Shown: positions 3,927 through 10,440, counted from the first letter of the stretch. The stretch is 64,000 bases of DNA from a phage (GCA_023732985.1 GCA_023732985.1_3946.1); one strand, 5' to 3'. Notes: generated by a model from the letters alone, not told the origin. Translations and numbers: made by a program.

Positions 3927-4781
3927 ATGTTTGAAAAGATTGATAGTGTTTATTATAAAACACTTGATGAAAGGACTGTAACACAGTTTAAAGATAAATT
4001 TATCTATACAAGTATCTTGAAAGCAATCACTGATGAGCTACAAACACTAGAGGATGTTTGCTGGCAGATGCACACAGAGAGAAATATCAGGACGTCAGTA
4101 GGTCAACAACTTGATAATATTGGCTCACTGATTAAAGTTCCTAGACCTTTAGGTGCTGATGATGAAACATACAGAGCTATGCTTTATATCCAAATCTTCC
4201 TAAGACGTTCTGATACTACTCCAACATTCTTGCAAAAAGCAATTATGACATTGTATGGTGCAACTTTCTCTCAGATTTTTGAGCATATTACTCCTAAGAC
4301 TGGTGGTATCGTTATCCGTATTAATACTAGAAAAAGCGTTCTTGATGCTGCATATACACTGTCAAAGATTTCTGCAACAACCACTGGTTCCGCTGTTATC
4401 TTAAGAGATGTTACTTTAAATGGGACCGCTTGGACACCTGTAGAGGTTGCTGATTCATCACTTGCTATTGTTGATGATAAAGAGAACTGGTTTGTAACTG
4501 ATGCTAACAGAGGTCTGGTAACAAATAACACTGGTGGCTCTCTGGAGTCCAACCTAGTAGGGAGTCTTGCAGATGCTGGTGTTATTGATGGTTACTTTAA
4601 GGTTGACAGAACAGCAAACTCACAGAGCGATGATTATATGACTGTAGATAGGTCTAATAAGAGTGGTTATTTCATCGTTGGTAAAGAAGCTATTGCAGGT
4701 GGTGCATACGGAATCATGGCTGAGGTTGCACAAATTGTCAAAGGCAGAAAAGATAAATCACAACAAGAAGGAAATTCTTAA
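3927..4781 (+). CDS. putative baseplate wedge / tail fibre connector
   Basis: 284 aa ORF between J-like gene and tail fibres. Confidence 0.3.
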
Positions 4782-5083
4782 TGGCAGTTCTAAATTGGTC
4801 TACAAACGAAGTAGATACTGATGGTAATCAGTTAAAAGTTTTACCACCACCGGAAGTTCAAGAGACAGGTCTTTTAAAGGGTGAGCCTATGGGTAGGCAG
4901 TGGTTCAACTATATTATCAACTACCTGCTGAATAAAGTAAATGGCACTGTTGGTGAAGTTCGTTCATATGCAACTGAGCAACCAGATTTAGTGGCTAATG
5001 GCTGGAACCTCATTAAGTCTGAGACAGGGACTGCATCAACAAGTACAAGAAACCTTTACACATATGAATATGTAGGAGCTTAA
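4781..5083 (+). CDS. hypothetical tail protein
   Basis: 100 aa ORF, start overlaps upstream stop. Confidence 0.3.
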
Positions 5084-5085
5084 TA

Positions 5086-6261
5086 ATGGCAGTAGGTGAA
5101 ATTCAAATTAGTGCCTTGCCACAAGCGGCCTTACCAATTGATTTGAGTGATATCTTCCACCTTAAGCAAGGTGTTGAGGATAAAAGATGTACGCTTGAGC
5201 AGTTGTTAGCACCTCACGCATCTCTGAGGAATAACCCTCATGGTGTAACTAAATCACAAGTAGGTCTTGATAATGTTATTAACTCTCTTCAATTAGTTGC
5301 AGCTAATAACTTGTCAGATGTTGTAAGTGTTGCTGAGGCAAGAGCAAATCTACAAATTATGTCGTCAGAGGAAGTGAATAACTTAATTCAGCAACATATT
5401 GACGACAAAAGTAACCCACACAATACAACGAAAGCACAGGTCGGTTTAAGTAATGTTCAGAACTGGACAACATCCAATCTGTACAATGAAGATGCTGATA
5501 AATATGCTACCGCGAAAGCAGTTAATAATTTATACAAAGCTATCCAAGCGTCATATCCAGTAGGGACTATTCACCTGTCTGTTAACTCTGCTAACCCATC
5601 CACTTACTTACTTTGTGGAGGTACTTGGGAGTTAGTTTCTAAAGGTAGAGCACTAGTTGGTTATGATACAGATTCTAGACCTGTTGGTTCAACGTTTGGT
5701 TCTCAGACTGTAGCATTAACAAATAATAATTTACCAGCACATACACACTCTATCTATTTAACAGGTGGTGGTCACACACACTCTGCAAGCGTATCTATCT
5801 CTAGTTTTGATTATGGTTCAAAAAGTACATCAACTTTTGATTACGGTACAAAAACGACTAATAGTGCTGGTGCTCATACTCACACGTTTAGTGGCACAAC
5901 AAGTAATGCTGGTAACCACAACCATAGAGTACCTATGAGGGGTAATGATAGAGGTGGTACAAATGCTATTACTGCATCTGCTGATGCTGGTGTTGGTAAT
6001 GCTATGTATACTGATTTAGCTGGTGCTCACACCCATAGCTTCTCAGGCACAACTGCATCATCTGGTGCTCATAGTCATACTGTTGCAATTGGTGCTCATA
6101 GTCACACTGTTAATATTGGTTCACACAGCCATACAGGTACTGTTACTGTTTCTAGCTCCGAGCATACACACTCAGGAACATCTGGTTCTGTTGGTGGTGG
6201 TCAAGCTTTCAGTGTTGAGCAGCCATCTTTTGTAGTGTATGTGTGGCAGAGAACAGCTTAA
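5086..6261 (+). CDS. tail fibre protein with His-x-His repeat tip
   Basis: C-terminal half carries many HTHS/HSHT/HNH motifs (e.g. GAHTHTFSGTT, GAHSHTVAIGAHSHTV) of the kind seen in phage receptor-binding fibre tips; C-terminus paralogous to the next gene. Confidence 0.6.
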   Translation: MAVGEIQISALPQAALPIDLSDIFHLKQGVEDKRCTLEQLLAPHASLRNNPHGVTKSQVGLDNVINSLQLVAANNLSDVVSVAEARANLQIMSSEEVNNLIQQHIDDKSNPHNTTKAQVGLSNVQNWTTSNLYNEDADKYATAKAVNNLYKAIQASYPVGTIHLSVNSANPSTYLLCGGTWELVSKGRALVGYDTDSRPVGSTFGSQTVALTNNNLPAHTHSIYLTGGGHTHSASVSISSFDYGSKSTSTFDYGTKTTNSAGAHTHTFSGTTSNAGNHNHRVPMRGNDRGGTNAITASADAGVGNAMYTDLAGAHTHSFSGTTASSGAHSHTVAIGAHSHTVNIGSHSHTGTVTVSSSEHTHSGTSGSVGGGQAFSVEQPSFVVYVWQRTA

Positions 6262-6271
6262 GTTCTTTACA

Positions 6272-6292
6272 GGGGCTTTATAGCCCCTTTTA
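6272..6292 (+). terminator. intrinsic terminator candidate
   Basis: GGGGCTTTATAGCCCC hairpin followed by TTTT, directly after tail fibre stop. Confidence 0.5.
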
Positions 6293-6307
6293 AGAGGAAA
6301 ATTCATA

Positions 6308-8857
6308 ATGGCAGATTACAAATTGAGTCAATTAAACTCAATCGACACAATTCGTTCAGAAGACCTATTGCACATCAGAGTTAAGAAAAGACCTGAAATG
6401 TTGGGTGATGAAGACCGTAGAATGACCTATCAAGACTTCTTAGCTTCCTTCAAACTAGAAAGGTTTGTTCAGATTGCTGGAAGCACTATGACTGGGGATT
6501 TAGGTATTGTCAAGTTACTTTACGGTGGAAAGTCTGTATTTGACCCTACAGGCTCTTCTGAGATTACTATTGGGGATATTTTAAAGACTTTTAAAATTAA
6601 CGCAAATGGTCTTAAACTAACTATTGCAGATGCTTCAAGGTCAGCAACTGTTTATCATACTCTGAATAAGCCAAGTCCTAATGAGCTTGGTATGAGAACT
6701 AATGAAGAGAATGATACAAGATACGCAAGACTTGCTATCACAAACACATTCTCTGGAACTCAAAATATTCAAGGTGATGCTAACTTACTTCGCCTTAGAA
6801 ACCAAAATGCAAATAATGCACAATATATCGAAGGTGTAAACCTAGATGGTTCGGCTAGATGGTGGGTTGGTATTGGTAGTAATGGCTCTGACGAAGTAAA
6901 GCTGTACAATAACAAATACAACTCAGCCTTGACTGTTGCAAGTAATGTCTCTGTTAATAAGTCTTTAGCAATCACTGGTCAAGTTCAACCTTCAGATTTC
7001 TCTAACTTAGATGCTAGATACTTCACTCAGACAGTTGCTAATCAGAGATTTGCACAGTTAGCTGGTAATAACACCTTTACAGGTGCTAACACATTTAGGA
7101 CTATGAGTGTTATCTCAAATGCTGCTGCTATCACACTGCAATGTGCATCAGCAAACGAATCCCTGTATCTACTTGCAAAAGATTATGAAGGTGGAAACTT
7201 ATGGTATCTTGGTAAAGGTAGTTCAGGTGCTGGTGTAACTATCTACAACTATACCACTAACACCTCTTTAGTCTTAGATGCTGCTGGAGTATCAGCAAAT
7301 AAAAATGTCAGAATCACTGGTCAAGTTCAACCTTCAGATTGGGCTAACATTGACTCTAGATATATTCCGGCAGCAACATTAAGTACAATTGCAAGAACTA
7401 ATGCACAAAATACTTTTAATGGTGTACAGAAAGTTGTTACGGATAATGAAGCCCTAATTGTGAAAAACTCTACTCAGAACAGACCATTGTATATCCGTGG
7501 TGTGGACACTGCTAATGTGTCAAGGTGGTGGGTAGGTGTTGGTGGGGCAGATACTAATGATGTAACCCTAAATAACAGTTTTTCTGGCACTCAGTTAGTT
7601 CTCGGGAATACAACATCATACATTAACAAAACATTGACTATTGCTGGACAAGTTCAACCTTCAGATTTCTCTAACTTAGATGCTAGATACTTTACGCAAA
7701 GTGCTAGTGATAGTAGATACCTAAGAATCAGAAGCACTAGCTTCAATGTGGGAAACACTGATAAGTGGGCTAAAATTGCCACTGTTGTGATGCCACAATC
7801 AGCATCCACTGCTGTTATTGAGGTATTTGGTGGGTCAGGTTTTAATATTAATACACCAAACCAAGCAGGTAAATGTGAAATTGTTCTGCGAACTTCAAAT
7901 AACAATCCAAAGGGCTTAAATGTTGTTGCTTGGAGAACATCAGAGAACACCATTGTCAGGGATATTGGTTATGTGAATACTTCTGGAGACACCTATGATA
8001 TTTACTATCTTGCTGGTACGTATCAAAACAGCACAACGACAAGGGTTCAGTCTTCTAGTAATGCAAGTGTACAGTTGTTTGAAGTCCCACAGACATTTGA
8101 TGATGCTCCACAAGGTATTGTGAAGGGTACAATTGCAAAATACTACACAAGTTTGCAAAAACCAACCCCTTCAGATATTGGTGCATACACTAAAGCAGAA
8201 ACTGACCAGAAGATTGCAGAAGCAATTAGTGACTCTACAGACCTGAATAAAATCTATCCAGTAGGTATTGTGACGTGGTTTAACAGTAATGTTAACCCTA
8301 ATACAGCACTTCCTGGTCTAACTTGGACGTACCTGAATAATGGTGTTGGTAGAACTATTAGAATTGCAGCAGCAAACGGTTCAGATGTTGCTACAACTGG
8401 TGGTTCAGACTCTGTAACGTTGTCTGTTGGTAACTTGCCTTCACACACGCACAGCTTCTCTGCTACTACTTCATCATTTGACTATGGTACTAAGACTTCT
8501 AGCACAACTGGTAACCACAACCACAACAGAGGTACTATGGAGATTACTGGTTCATTTGGTTACTTCAGAAGTGACGCTAGTAGCTTCTACACAGCAAGTG
8601 GTGCATTCCACCTCGGTAGTCAGGCAGGTTCTAAAGGGTATACTGGTAATAACTTTACTAATGGTATCCCTGTCAACTTCAACGCATCAAGAAACTGGTC
8701 TGGTGTAACGAATACAACAGGTAACCACAGCCACACTGTTGGTATTGGTGCTCACAGCCACACAGTTAGTGGTAACACTGGTGGTACTGGTTCTGGTTCA
8801 GCATTCAGTGTTACTAACCAGTTCTATAAGTTAATGGCTTGGGTAAGAACTGCTTAA
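6308..8857 (+). CDS. long tail fibre protein
   Basis: 849 aa; three internal copies of ITGQVQPSD(F/W)(S/A)N(L/I)D(A/S)RY; C-terminal HTHSFS...GNHNHN...GNHSHTVGIGAHSHTV tip similar to 5086..6261. Confidence 0.65.
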   Translation: MADYKLSQLNSIDTIRSEDLLHIRVKKRPEMLGDEDRRMTYQDFLASFKLERFVQIAGSTMTGDLGIVKLLYGGKSVFDPTGSSEITIGDILKTFKINANGLKLTIADASRSATVYHTLNKPSPNELGMRTNEENDTRYARLAITNTFSGTQNIQGDANLLRLRNQNANNAQYIEGVNLDGSARWWVGIGSNGSDEVKLYNNKYNSALTVASNVSVNKSLAITGQVQPSDFSNLDARYFTQTVANQRFAQLAGNNTFTGANTFRTMSVISNAAAITLQCASANESLYLLAKDYEGGNLWYLGKGSSGAGVTIYNYTTNTSLVLDAAGVSANKNVRITGQVQPSDWANIDSRYIPAATLSTIARTNAQNTFNGVQKVVTDNEALIVKNSTQNRPLYIRGVDTANVSRWWVGVGGADTNDVTLNNSFSGTQLVLGNTTSYINKTLTIAGQVQPSDFSNLDARYFTQSASDSRYLRIRSTSFNVGNTDKWAKIATVVMPQSASTAVIEVFGGSGFNINTPNQAGKCEIVLRTSNNNPKGLNVVAWRTSENTIVRDIGYVNTSGDTYDIYYLAGTYQNSTTTRVQSSSNASVQLFEVPQTFDDAPQGIVKGTIAKYYTSLQKPTPSDIGAYTKAETDQKIAEAISDSTDLNKIYPVGIVTWFNSNVNPNTALPGLTWTYLNNGVGRTIRIAAANGSDVATTGGSDSVTLSVGNLPSHTHSFSATTSSFDYGTKTSSTTGNHNHNRGTMEITGSFGYFRSDASSFYTASGAFHLGSQAGSKGYTGNNFTNGIPVNFNASRNWSGVTNTTGNHSHTVGIGAHSHTVSGNTGGTGSGSAFSVTNQFYKLMAWVRTA

Positions 8858-8864
8858 TCCCTTG

Positions 8865-8893
8865 TTGACTGATTGTTAAGATGGTGTTAATAT
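8865..8893 (+). promoter_or_regulatory. sigma70-like promoter candidate (TTGACT-17-TAATAT)
   Basis: -35 TTGACT at 8865-8870, 17 bp spacer, -10 TAATAT at 8888-8893, upstream of ORF 8937. Confidence 0.4.
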
Positions 8894-8936
8894 TCTTTAT
8901 AGGTATTCTCACCATCTTGGCTGATGAGGTGATTAA

Positions 8937-9131
8937 ATGCCTACAATCCTAGCAATTCTTCTAAAAAATCTAGGTAGCTTCTTCTGGAAACTCATTTTAT
9001 CCCTTCTAAGTGAATACATGATTGAGAAAGTGTTCTTTAAGCTTGCAAGATACCTTGCGAGTAAAACAGATACACCTATTGATGATGAGTTCGTAGATAA
9101 CTTAGAAAAAGCTTTTAAGGGGGAGAAATAA
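8937..9131 (+). CDS. hypothetical small hydrophobic protein
   Basis: 64 aa ORF with hydrophobic N-terminus downstream of promoter candidate. Confidence 0.3.
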   Translation: MPTILAILLKNLGSFFWKLILSLLSEYMIEKVFFKLARYLASKTDTPIDDEFVDNLEKAFKGEK

Positions 9132-9503
9132 ATGAAGTGGCTAGAGGAAGCTTTTAAAAATAATATTGGTGCAATTGTAGTTGGTATTTTTAGTGTTATT
9201 GGGATGTATACCACTATGCAAGTCTCAAGTGGTAAGCAGGAAGTGTCTGTCACAACAAAGTTACAGCAGCTAGATAATTATTCCAAAAGTAACTATTCAG
9301 CTATTCGTGATTTACAGTCTGACATGAGATTGATTCAGCTAGGGATGGAGAACCAGAAAGTTCAGTTAGAGAATGTTAAGGGTGAAAACGCAAAACTTAC
9401 CAAAACCCTTGATAAATTCTCTGACAGTGTGAACAATCTGGCTCAATCAGTATCAGCCTTGCAAGCTATTACTGAAAAGAACACAAAGAATACTGAAAAA
9501 TAA
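9132..9503 (+). CDS. hypothetical membrane-anchored coiled-coil protein
   Basis: N-terminal hydrophobic segment IGAIVVGIFSVIGMY followed by heptad-like polar sequence. Confidence 0.3.
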   Translation: MKWLEEAFKNNIGAIVVGIFSVIGMYTTMQVSSGKQEVSVTTKLQQLDNYSKSNYSAIRDLQSDMRLIQLGMENQKVQLENVKGENAKLTKTLDKFSDSVNNLAQSVSALQAITEKNTKNTEK

Positions 9504-9510
9504 AATTTAA

Positions 9511-9536
9511 GGCTCCCGTAAAAAGGAGCCTTTTTT
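9511..9536 (+). terminator. intrinsic terminator between convergent genes
   Basis: GGCTCC-CGTAAAAA-GGAGCC hairpin followed by TTTTTT; lies between plus-strand structural genes and minus-strand thyA. Confidence 0.55.
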
Positions 9537-9540
9537 GTTT

Positions 9541-10440
9541 TTACTTACCTACTGACAGAGGTGCTTCAATCTTTCCTGCATGTTGGTAGTTGTAAATGCC
9601 ACCAATAAAATCACTTGCAGTAAGGTGTTTTAGGTCACTTAGTGTGTTAAGTGGTACACCAATCTCAAAAGTAGGTGCATGGAACTCTTCATTGTTCATC
9701 AGTTCATAAACCTGCTTCATATGGTTCTGATAAATCTGGGTATCCCCAAAGACACCTATCAAGTACCGTGGAGTGTATCCAGTCATCTTACAAAGAACTT
9801 CTAAGATGAAACCATAAGACGCAATATTAAACGGAAGTCCTAAAAAGGTGTCTACTGAACGTTGATACCACTGTAAGTCAACTTCACCCTCATTAGTGAT
9901 ATAAATCTGAAACAGAACATGACAAGGTGCTAAAGCCATTGAGTTTGCTGCAATATCTGCTGCATTCCAAGCATTAACAAGCATGTAACGGTCTGTAATA
10001 TCACCCTTCATCTTCGTTACTAAGGTCTCTAACTGGTCTACAACACAACCATTATGACCTTCAAAGTTTCTCCACTGAACCCCATAGATTCTCCCACCTG
10101 CATCTTCTAACCAATCTTGTTCAGAAGAATAATTAGAACTTAACCAGCGTTTAAAATCATCTGACCAGATAGTCCAGCGTTCTCCGTCATTTTCATCCCA
10201 AGTACGGTAACGAAGTTCACCCAGCTTATTCTCACCATTCAGGAACCATAAAGCCTCCCCAATAACTTGCCGTGTAAACACCTGTTTAGATGTTAAGAGC
10301 GGGAAACCAGTCCTCATATCAAAACGAAACTGAGGTGGAGCAAAAGCAGAGATAACATCTCCAGTTCGTGTAGTACGCAGTTCACCAACGGATAAAACAT
10401 GGTTCAGGATATTTTTGTAACTTGTATCTGCTTGTGACAT
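9541..10440 (-). CDS. thyA: thymidylate synthase
   Basis: Conserved TS motifs in translation: DRTGTG-like RTTRTGD, active-site LAPCHVLFQ, RSVDTFLGLPFNIASY. Confidence 0.9.
   Translation of the reverse strand: MSQADTSYKNILNHVLSVGELRTTRTGDVISAFAPPQFRFDMRTGFPLLTSKQVFTRQVIGEALWFLNGENKLGELRYRTWDENDGERWTIWSDDFKRWLSSNYSSEQDWLEDAGGRIYGVQWRNFEGHNGCVVDQLETLVTKMKGDITDRYMLVNAWNAADIAANSMALAPCHVLFQIYITNEGEVDLQWYQRSVDTFLGLPFNIASYGFILEVLCKMTGYTPRYLIGVFGDTQIYQNHMKQVYELMNNEEFHAPTFEIGVPLNTLSDLKHLTASDFIGGIYNYQHAGKIEAPLSVGK

Follow-up and report, generated by a model that had tools for sequence, protein, structure and literature searches.

The stretch of DNA considered here, called the window (64,000 nucleotides (nt) of one phage, GCA_023732985.1_3946.1), carries two adjacent genes at positions 5086 to 8857. 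By homology, these are the short and long tail fibre genes of a wV8-like Felixounavirus. We consider it likely that both fibres end in tips of the T4 gp37 type and that a short junction sequence, which occurs three times in the long-fibre gene, provides crossover points for the exchange of cassettes. The two genes are:

5086..6261, plus strand: short tail fibre gene (391 amino acids (aa)), counterpart of wV8 gp82 and of the Bas63 short tail fibre gp26
6308..8857, plus strand: long tail fibre gene (849 aa), counterpart of wV8 gp83 and of the Bas63 long tail fibre gp27

The source of the window is a wV8-like Felixounavirus, as indicated by 95-97% DNA identity to KEP3, wV8 and O157 typing phages and by the same gene order. 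Region 5086-8857 has matches in 240 phage records, the top ones being Escherichia phages KEP3 (96.8%), vB_EcoM_H12 and wV8 and the E. coli O157 typing phages. In wV8 as in the window, baseplate wedge genes are followed by the two fibre genes, two small open reading frames (ORFs) and the genes for thymidylate synthase and dihydrofolate reductase. The annotation of wV8 lists its two fibre genes as tail fibre proteins 82 and 83. The short fibre gene shares 97% DNA identity with a wV8 'tail fiber protein' and matches phrog_2097 (tail fiber, E = 1e-138). The long fibre matches phrog_4277 (tail fiber, 1344 bits) over its full length and has at least 120 homologues, with lengths of 740-856 aa among the matches listed. 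A scan of a genome contig collection with the N-terminal 135 aa of the long fibre found no relatives.

Homology of both fibre tips to T4 gp37

The first-pass annotation of this DNA had pointed to similar C-termini of the two fibres and proposed a shared candidate metal-binding and receptor-binding tip. The C-terminal residues it quoted are present in both ORFs, and the similarity is borne out by composition-adjusted BLASTP (32% identity over 221 aa, E = 1e-16). In addition, aa 145-362 of the short fibre match the receptor-binding tip of T4 gp37 in PDB entry 2XGF (gp37 residues 785-1026, E = 1.8e-26), and aa 707-828 of the long fibre match the same chain (E = 5.9e-7). This structure was reportedly described by Bartual et al. 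in 2010. HxH, FDYGTK and GIGAHxHTV line up in order in the alignment, and a collar domain lies upstream of the needle in both fibres. Judged by this homology, both fibres end in a gp37-type tip composed of collar, HxH needle and head, and the tip is predicted to be of the proposed metal-binding type. By the same homology, the HxH motifs of this phage would bind metal and the needle would be trimeric. The parts of the two tips are:

5545..5913, plus strand: short-fibre collar and needle start, Pfam Gp10_C, aa 154-276 (PF21939, E = 3.7e-18, 67.3 bits)
5737..6180, plus strand: short-fibre needle (motif positions, residue alignment to 2XGF)
5926-6024, plus strand: short-fibre head insert, aa 281-313 (variable stretch among relatives)
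6052..6120, plus strand: 27-nt (9-aa) tandem period G-A-H-S-H-T-V-x-I (Tandem Repeats Finder, 2.1 copies, 80-87% matches)
8159..8575, plus strand: linker KPTPSDIGAYTKAETDQKIAEA, then long-fibre collar (Gp10_C, aa 647-756, 26.6 bits, just below the cutoff of 27 bits for PF21939)
8441..8770, plus strand: long-fibre needle (HxH positions, 2XGF alignment)
8528-8722, plus strand: long-fibre head insert, 65 aa, aa 741-805 (highest aa diversity in the gene, up to 0.8)

The short-fibre collar aligns with T4 gp10 and with the gp37 collar, and the long-fibre collar, whose aa diversity is about 0.1, can be aligned with the short-fibre collar. The short fibre contains nine HxH motifs (aa 219-362). Four of them, AHTHS, GHTHS, AHTHT and NHNHR, form the outgoing run together with two FDYGxK units, and five, AHTHS, AHSHT, AHSHT, SHSHT and EHTHS, form the return run. 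The long fibre has four (aa 713-818), SHTHS and NHNHN on the way out and NHSHT and AHSHT on the way back. Thus, the HxH runs flank an insert in both proteins, 4 + 5 motifs around aa 281-313 and 2 + 2 around aa 741-805. This order is expected if the chain runs out along a needle, forms a head and runs back. In each protein, variability among relatives peaks in the head insert. The 27-nt period at 6052..6120 corresponds to the repeating HxH layer in the return strand of the short-fibre needle, and the long fibre has a similar unit at 8715-8774 (73-75% identity, direct-repeat family D2).

In T4, seven HxH motifs coordinate Fe ions (PMC12609058). By analogy, the chain of each fibre would pass from the collar out along a trimeric needle, form a small variable head for receptor contact and then return. 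The HxH motifs of outgoing and returning strands would face the needle core, where six histidines per layer would hold one metal ion. About nine such layers are expected in the short fibre and four in the long fibre.

A search for recent conversion between the two fibre genes yielded a longest exact DNA match of only 16 nt. Therefore, recent conversion between them was rejected, and the shared tip is old.

The number of needle motifs varies among relatives. In the short-fibre needle, the outgoing strand (window 5806-5853) has between 2 and about 5 FDYGxK units, depending on the relative (loci L012, L026, L041 and L014). Some relatives have FDYGxK where the short fibre of the window has HxH, which leaves 7 HxH motifs, not 9.

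Repeat units and junctions of the long fibre

Three DNA repeats had been noticed in the long-fibre gene. They are indeed present, start at 6977, 7319 and 7646, are all in frame and are spaced by 342 and 327 nt. Each belongs to a unit of about 110 aa that ends in the junction GQVQPSD(F/W)xN(L/I)DxRY, and the DNA repeats are these junctions. The long fibre is arranged as follows upstream of its collar:

6308..6712, plus strand: conserved N-terminal region, aa 1-135 (aa diversity among relatives about 0.1)
6713..7021, plus strand: repeat unit 1 (slot 1), variable beta-rich body and junction 1 (PF20744; T7 gp17 profile match; predicted local distance difference test (pLDDT) of the body about 80-86)
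6977..7021, plus strand: junction core 1, GQVQPSDFSNLDARY (holds the 44-nt exact repeat 6980-7023)
7022..7363, plus strand: repeat unit 2 (slot 2; PF20744, unit profile)
7319..7363, plus strand: junction core 2, GQVQPSDWANIDSRY (29-nt exact match to copy 1 at 7312-7340)
7364..7690, plus strand: repeat unit 3 (slot 3; PF20744, unit profile)
7646..7690, plus strand: junction core 3, GQVQPSDFSNLDARY (holds the 44-nt exact repeat 7649-7692)
7694..8137, plus strand: central beta-rich domain, aa 463-610 (pLDDT 70-87)

PF20744 (gp37_trimer) matches the long fibre in three stretches (E = 4.5e-78, 257.8 bits, cutoff 21.7). Copies 1 and 3 of the junction share an exact match of 44 nt (6980-7023 = 7649-7692), copies 1 and 2 one of 29 nt (6970-6998 = 7312-7340) and copies 2 and 3 one of 19 nt. 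Over a 76-nt repeat family, copy 3 is 84% and copy 2 is 70% identical to copy 1. The view that two copies are almost identical in nucleotides therefore holds for the core of about 45 nt only; the rest of the unit of about 330 nt shares 46-50% of its DNA, and pairwise protein identity of the units is 32-46%. This divergence indicates an ancient duplication.

A profile was built from 41 diverse units of this and related phages. The junction consensus in these units is G-Q-V-x-P-x-D-(F/W)-x-N-x-D-x-R-Y, with G, Q, V, P, N, D and R invariant. The profile matches T7 gp17 residues 367-436 (E = 1.3e-7), which we take to lie within the gp17 pyramid domain, and weakly Mu gpS 348-440 including QVIPGNYANFDSRY (E = 0.01). 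Foldseek searches with an AlphaFold model list T7 gp17 (4A0T/4A0U; 4A0U at E = 1.6e-5) and Mu gpS (5YVQ), T4 gp34 and tailspike N-termini, all with low template modelling scores (TM-scores) from a poor, low-confidence monomer model. In T7 gp17 and Mu gpS the unit is present in a single copy, whereas here three stand in tandem. The likely counterparts of the junction in Bas63 are the short linkers that separate its beta-rich domains (PMC12609058).

The first-pass annotation had also regarded the repeats as a substrate for length variation and suggested that copy number be compared across relatives. Such variation is essentially absent: of 154 distinct full-length sequences, 153, in which the junctions are recognisable, have three units, and no four-unit variant occurs among the 154. 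This constancy agrees with PMC12609058, where repeat number does not vary among 18 species. The remaining sequence is a metagenomic variant with two units (P0058/L029), 740 aa long and exactly one unit shorter. Its gene is wV8-like to nt 788 and continues with a slot-2 body known from other phages. The joint lies inside the GQVQPSD motif and leads to the sequence that normally follows junction 3.

Cassette exchange and slot shifts

Diversity along the long-fibre gene distinguishes a conserved backbone, which consists of the N-terminus, the three junction islands, the collar and the C-terminus, from variable cassettes, namely the body of each of the three units, the central domain at aa 463-610 and the head. 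The N-terminal region, which presumably binds the baseplate (function from PMC12609058), co-varies with collar and C-terminus (r = 0.91-0.94). The central domain is a further swappable cassette. It has two unrelated forms, a 152-aa type in the window and a type of about 92 aa in relatives with fibres of 788-790 aa (P0054, P0064, P0074, P0099), and Pfam gp37_C (PF12604) appears for the 788-790-aa fibres in a precomputed domain list. Megablast alignments of Felix O1 to the fibre gene of the window stop at the central domain.

Sequence clusters defined per segment reassort among relatives. wV8 is 96-100% identical to the window except for the slot-2 body (58%), junctions 1 and 2 (91-93%) and the slot-3 body (89%). 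An IMG/VR locus (L025) shares with the window only the slot-2 body (98% DNA); in the flanks of this body, the pattern for wV8 and L025 is reversed. HY02 resembles the window in N-terminus, collar, head and C-terminus (95-99% identity), but not in the three unit bodies (42-53%). Between backbone segments, pairwise identities correlate with r = 0.90-0.94; for cassettes, compared with the backbone or with one another, r is 0.15-0.57. Mismatch maps of wV8, L025, HY02 and others show that identity switches at the edges of junction islands, at a resolution set by the width of the conserved island. The ends of megablast alignments accumulate at junctions and His boxes (gene coordinates 647-665, 1333-1399 and 2187-2217), and alignments to relatives often begin or end at junction core 3 (1333-1399). 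Base composition is flat across the cassettes.

Cassettes are also found in different slots. In the fibre of Salmonella phage DaR-2019a, nt 757-1115 correspond to nt 433-791 of the window gene (88%, offset 324 nt, which is one unit), and nt 971-1379 correspond to nt 647-1055 of HY02 (90%). Hence, slots 2 and 3 of this fibre hold cassettes that occupy slots 1 and 2 elsewhere, and the total is still three. Slot 1 of P0062 equals slot 3 of P0048 (100% aa), and slot 1 of L024 matches slot 3 of L003 (95%). Altogether, 463 unit bodies fall into 96 clusters at 90% identity, and four of these clusters span more than one slot. Out-of-register exchange is possible because the junction is repeated within the gene. 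Reassorting segments, identity switches at junctions and slot shifts support an exchange of modules that is mediated by the repeats.

From these patterns we infer that crossovers occur inside the junctions. The junctions, whose DNA is almost the same within one gene and among relatives that infect the same cell, would serve as crossover points for homologous recombination. Five cassettes (three unit bodies, central domain and head) would be swapped independently on the conserved backbone. An occasional out-of-register crossover would move a cassette to another slot and, very rarely, alter the number of units.

Probable homogenisation of the junctions

Gene conversion had been proposed for the repeats, and three lines of evidence argue for homogenisation of the junction core. 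Where copies 1 and 3 encode the same residue, the codons are identical at 14 of 15 positions in the core versus 14 of 32 elsewhere in the units. The probability of 14 identical codons under the codon usage of this phage is 7e-6, so the 44-nt identity goes beyond aa conservation and codon usage. Right beside the 44-nt tract, same-residue codons differ. In 23 distinct relatives, junction copies from one genome resemble each other more than copies paired across genomes do; for copies 1 and 3, there are 7.5 differences within a genome versus 8.75 between genomes (permutation p = 7e-4). Furthermore, copies 1 and 3 are near-identical in two lineages that differ in the variant: the window has DFSNLDARY, and locus L023 has DWANLDARY, the W/A variant, in identical copies 1 and 3. 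The junctions would be kept for structural reasons, and repeated cassette exchange would keep their DNA homogenised.

Alternative explanations

Both the likeness of the tips and that of the junctions could have other causes. The C-terminal regions are biased in composition (the short fibre has 24 histidines; G, S and T are frequent), and two proteins rich in His, Ser, Thr and Gly could resemble each other without common descent or fold. This is hardly credible: the BLASTP value given above is composition-adjusted, both proteins align in order to 2XGF, and a collar precedes the needle in each. Moreover, Smith-Waterman scores of the whole tip, the needle alone and the last 45 aa have z = 16.8, 12.2 and 10.8, respectively, against 500 shuffles each, and the observed score was reached by 0 of 500 shuffles in every case. 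Similarity of composition without shared order, named in the first-pass annotation as the finding that would speak against a common tip, is thus not what the shuffles and the 2XGF alignment show. The 44-nt exact match and the in-frame spacings of 342 and 327 nt, for their part, had suggested a recent tandem duplication in this phage lineage. Such an event is very improbable, since the units differ too much outside the core (32-46% protein and 46-50% DNA identity), since all three slots exist in every relative examined, even in those 48-60% identical overall, and since the unit family extends to T7 gp17 and Mu gpS.

Another possibility is that the identity of the cores results from protein constraint and codon preference without any conversion. 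In this case junctions would not be special, and crossovers would happen anywhere and be sorted by selection. The motif is nearly invariant in protein among the 41 diverse units, preferred codons of this phage make up most of the core, and synonymous diversity at the junctions equals that of other conserved segments. We regard this explanation as unlikely, though worth keeping in mind. It does not account for the improbability of the 14 identical codons next to flanking same-residue codons that differ, nor for the lineage-specific co-variation of copies 1 and 3, which includes non-synonymous sites (F/S in the window, W/A in L023). Slot-shifted cassettes bring their own junctions, which requires pairing of junctions from different slots. 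Conservation of the 44-nt tract for a function of the nucleic acid itself (RNA structure, regulatory site or nuclease target), rather than for protein or recombination, would also explain identity above the codon-usage prediction, but has next to no probability. An Rfam scan of 4500-9600 gave no match, a scan for consensus promoters and terminators showed no enrichment, and the tract contains no inverted repeat. Its synonymous sites vary among relatives, and the protein motif is kept in distant fibres (Mu gpS) with unrelated DNA.

Several observations weigh against exchange at the junctions of gp37-tipped fibres as the favoured reading. The junctions carry no informative differences, and a switch beside an island is expected from any crossover nearby. 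The comparison of differences within and between genomes ignores shared ancestry, and its effect is modest (7.5 versus 8.75). Synonymous diversity at the junctions is 0.22-0.32 and not below that of other conserved gene parts; hence, they are not uniquely protected at the DNA level. The sole two-unit variant is a single metagenome contig of 6.7x coverage and could be a chimeric assembly. In the AlphaFold2 monomer model of the full long fibre (42-sequence alignment, mean pLDDT 52.8), pLDDT is below 50 across the whole tip. Finally, HY02, listed with an O157:H7 host, has the head type of the window (99% DNA), yet three different unit bodies (42-53%), which argues that the units are not the main determinant of host range.

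Comparison with known fibres

The fibre architecture of this genus has already been published, based on cryo-electron microscopy of Bas63 (PMC12609058, Sci Adv 2025). Bas63 belongs to the same genus and has the same adjacent gene pair. Its short (gp26) and long (gp27) fibres possess a gp37-like collar, an HxH needle and a head, and the long fibre is composed of repeated beta-rich domains with short conserved linkers between them. Tips and repeat domains are highly variable (PMC12609058). Differences concern the number of HxH motifs, 7 and 6 (plus HHxH) in Bas63 versus 9 and 4 here, and the number of domains: five beta-helix domains are counted in Bas63, whereas only three PF20744 units with a junction motif are found here. 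PMC12609058 attributes the variability of the repeat domains to sequence variation; cassette reassortment, slot shifts and DNA identity of junctions do not appear in the passages of that paper considered here. An incomplete literature search found no paper on cassette shuffling in Felixounavirus fibres.

The ordered match to T4 gp37 extends through collar, FDYGTK, HxH runs and GIGAHxHTV, with HxH motifs on both sides of the head insert. The window differs from T4 in having 9 and 4 HxH motifs instead of 7 and a long-fibre head insert (65 aa) about twice as long. Here, the tip is part of a fibre encoded by a single gene, whereas in T4 it belongs to the distal subunit of a four-protein fibre. No gp38-, Tfa- or gp57A-like fibre chaperone gene was recognised adjoining the fibre genes.

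In T-even distal fibres, hypervariable segments are flanked by conserved motifs, and chimeras arise from exchange within or near these motifs (Tetart et al., 1996, 1998, via PMC3157838). Exchange at conserved motifs is thus a known T-even principle, and it also fits the junction islands and His boxes described here. In contrast to T-even fibres, the conserved motif itself occurs three times in one gene, making out-of-register slot moves possible. The T-even work was experimental, while exchange in the present fibres is deduced from sequence comparison.

Flanking signals, neighbouring reading frames and database records

Two further features of the fibre region can be read from the sequence:

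5233..5463, plus strand: two copies of the N-terminal short-fibre motif NPHxxTKxQVGLxNVxN, aa 50-66 and 110-126
6272..6291, plus strand: intergenic GC hairpin with T run, GGGGCT-TTAT-AGCCCC-TTTT, between the fibre genes, terminator-like

The two motif copies are kept in all relatives and probably represent the linkers described as 'triple alpha helix and turn' in the Bas63 short fibre (PMC12609058). A site equivalent to the intergenic hairpin is annotated as a Rho-independent terminator in wV8; the promoter and terminator scan mentioned above did not call the hairpin. It could lower transcription of the long-fibre gene relative to the short-fibre gene. The genes starting at 4781, 5086 and 6308 have a similar ribosome-binding site and start context, ...A(A/T)TAATGGCAG... 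(4762-4788, 5067-5093 and 6289-6315), and begin with M-A-V, M-A-V and M-A-D, respectively. This likeness probably reflects a shared translation-initiation context only.

Directly 3' of the long fibre gene lie two small conserved ORFs, 8937-9131 (64 aa, phrog_402) and 9132-9503 (123 aa, phrog_4038). Both have N-terminal stretches that look hydrophobic by eye. Pfam matches of the second ORF are sub-threshold only and belong largely to unrelated families. They are followed by a strong bidirectional terminator-like hairpin at 9509-9532, AAGGCTCC...GGAGCCTT, with T runs on both strands, which lies between the rightward fibre block and the leftward td/frd genes.

The records of Campylobacter phage A132 (MG065664.1) and Staphylococcus phage SA1 (GU169904.1) contain Felixounavirus fibre genes with 79-90% DNA identity, and their host names suggest contamination or mislabelling of the records. 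At two loci the long fibre is encoded by two separate ORFs, of 453 + 311 aa in L011 (an IMG/VR copy of an 84,419-bp genome) and of 541 + 259 aa in L018, which indicates a frameshift or a sequencing error. The long fibre of Si3 is flagged as incomplete in the Bas63 paper (PMC12609058).

Implications

Tip homology and domain layout were published before, so that nothing fundamental is added in this respect. A modest new point is the shifting of cassettes between slots at a constant number of three units. Cassettes tolerate moves between slots while fibre length stays constant. The window phage, wV8 and HY02 have a common head type, and O157:H7 hosts are recorded for the latter two. The head may be the main determinant of specificity, and cassette exchange may affect host range.

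A more far-reaching proposal is that the long fibre represents a three-slot cassette system in which unit bodies are swapped independently and regardless of slot via one repeated junction, selection holds their number at three, and the bodies are surfaces that bind ligands or are targeted by defence or neutralisation. We assign a low probability to it. If it were true, there would be up to five independently swappable specificity elements per fibre, the unit bodies making, for example, lateral contacts with lipopolysaccharide or O-antigen along the shaft, and the junction sequence would be a ready-made site for fibre engineering.

Felix O1-like phages are employed for the typing of Salmonella and E. 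coli O157 and for their biocontrol. The practical gain for them is a natural crossover map that comprises the three junction cores, the collar edges and the His boxes. Knowing which parts of the fibre are scaffold and which are exchangeable cassettes helps to predict and engineer host range.

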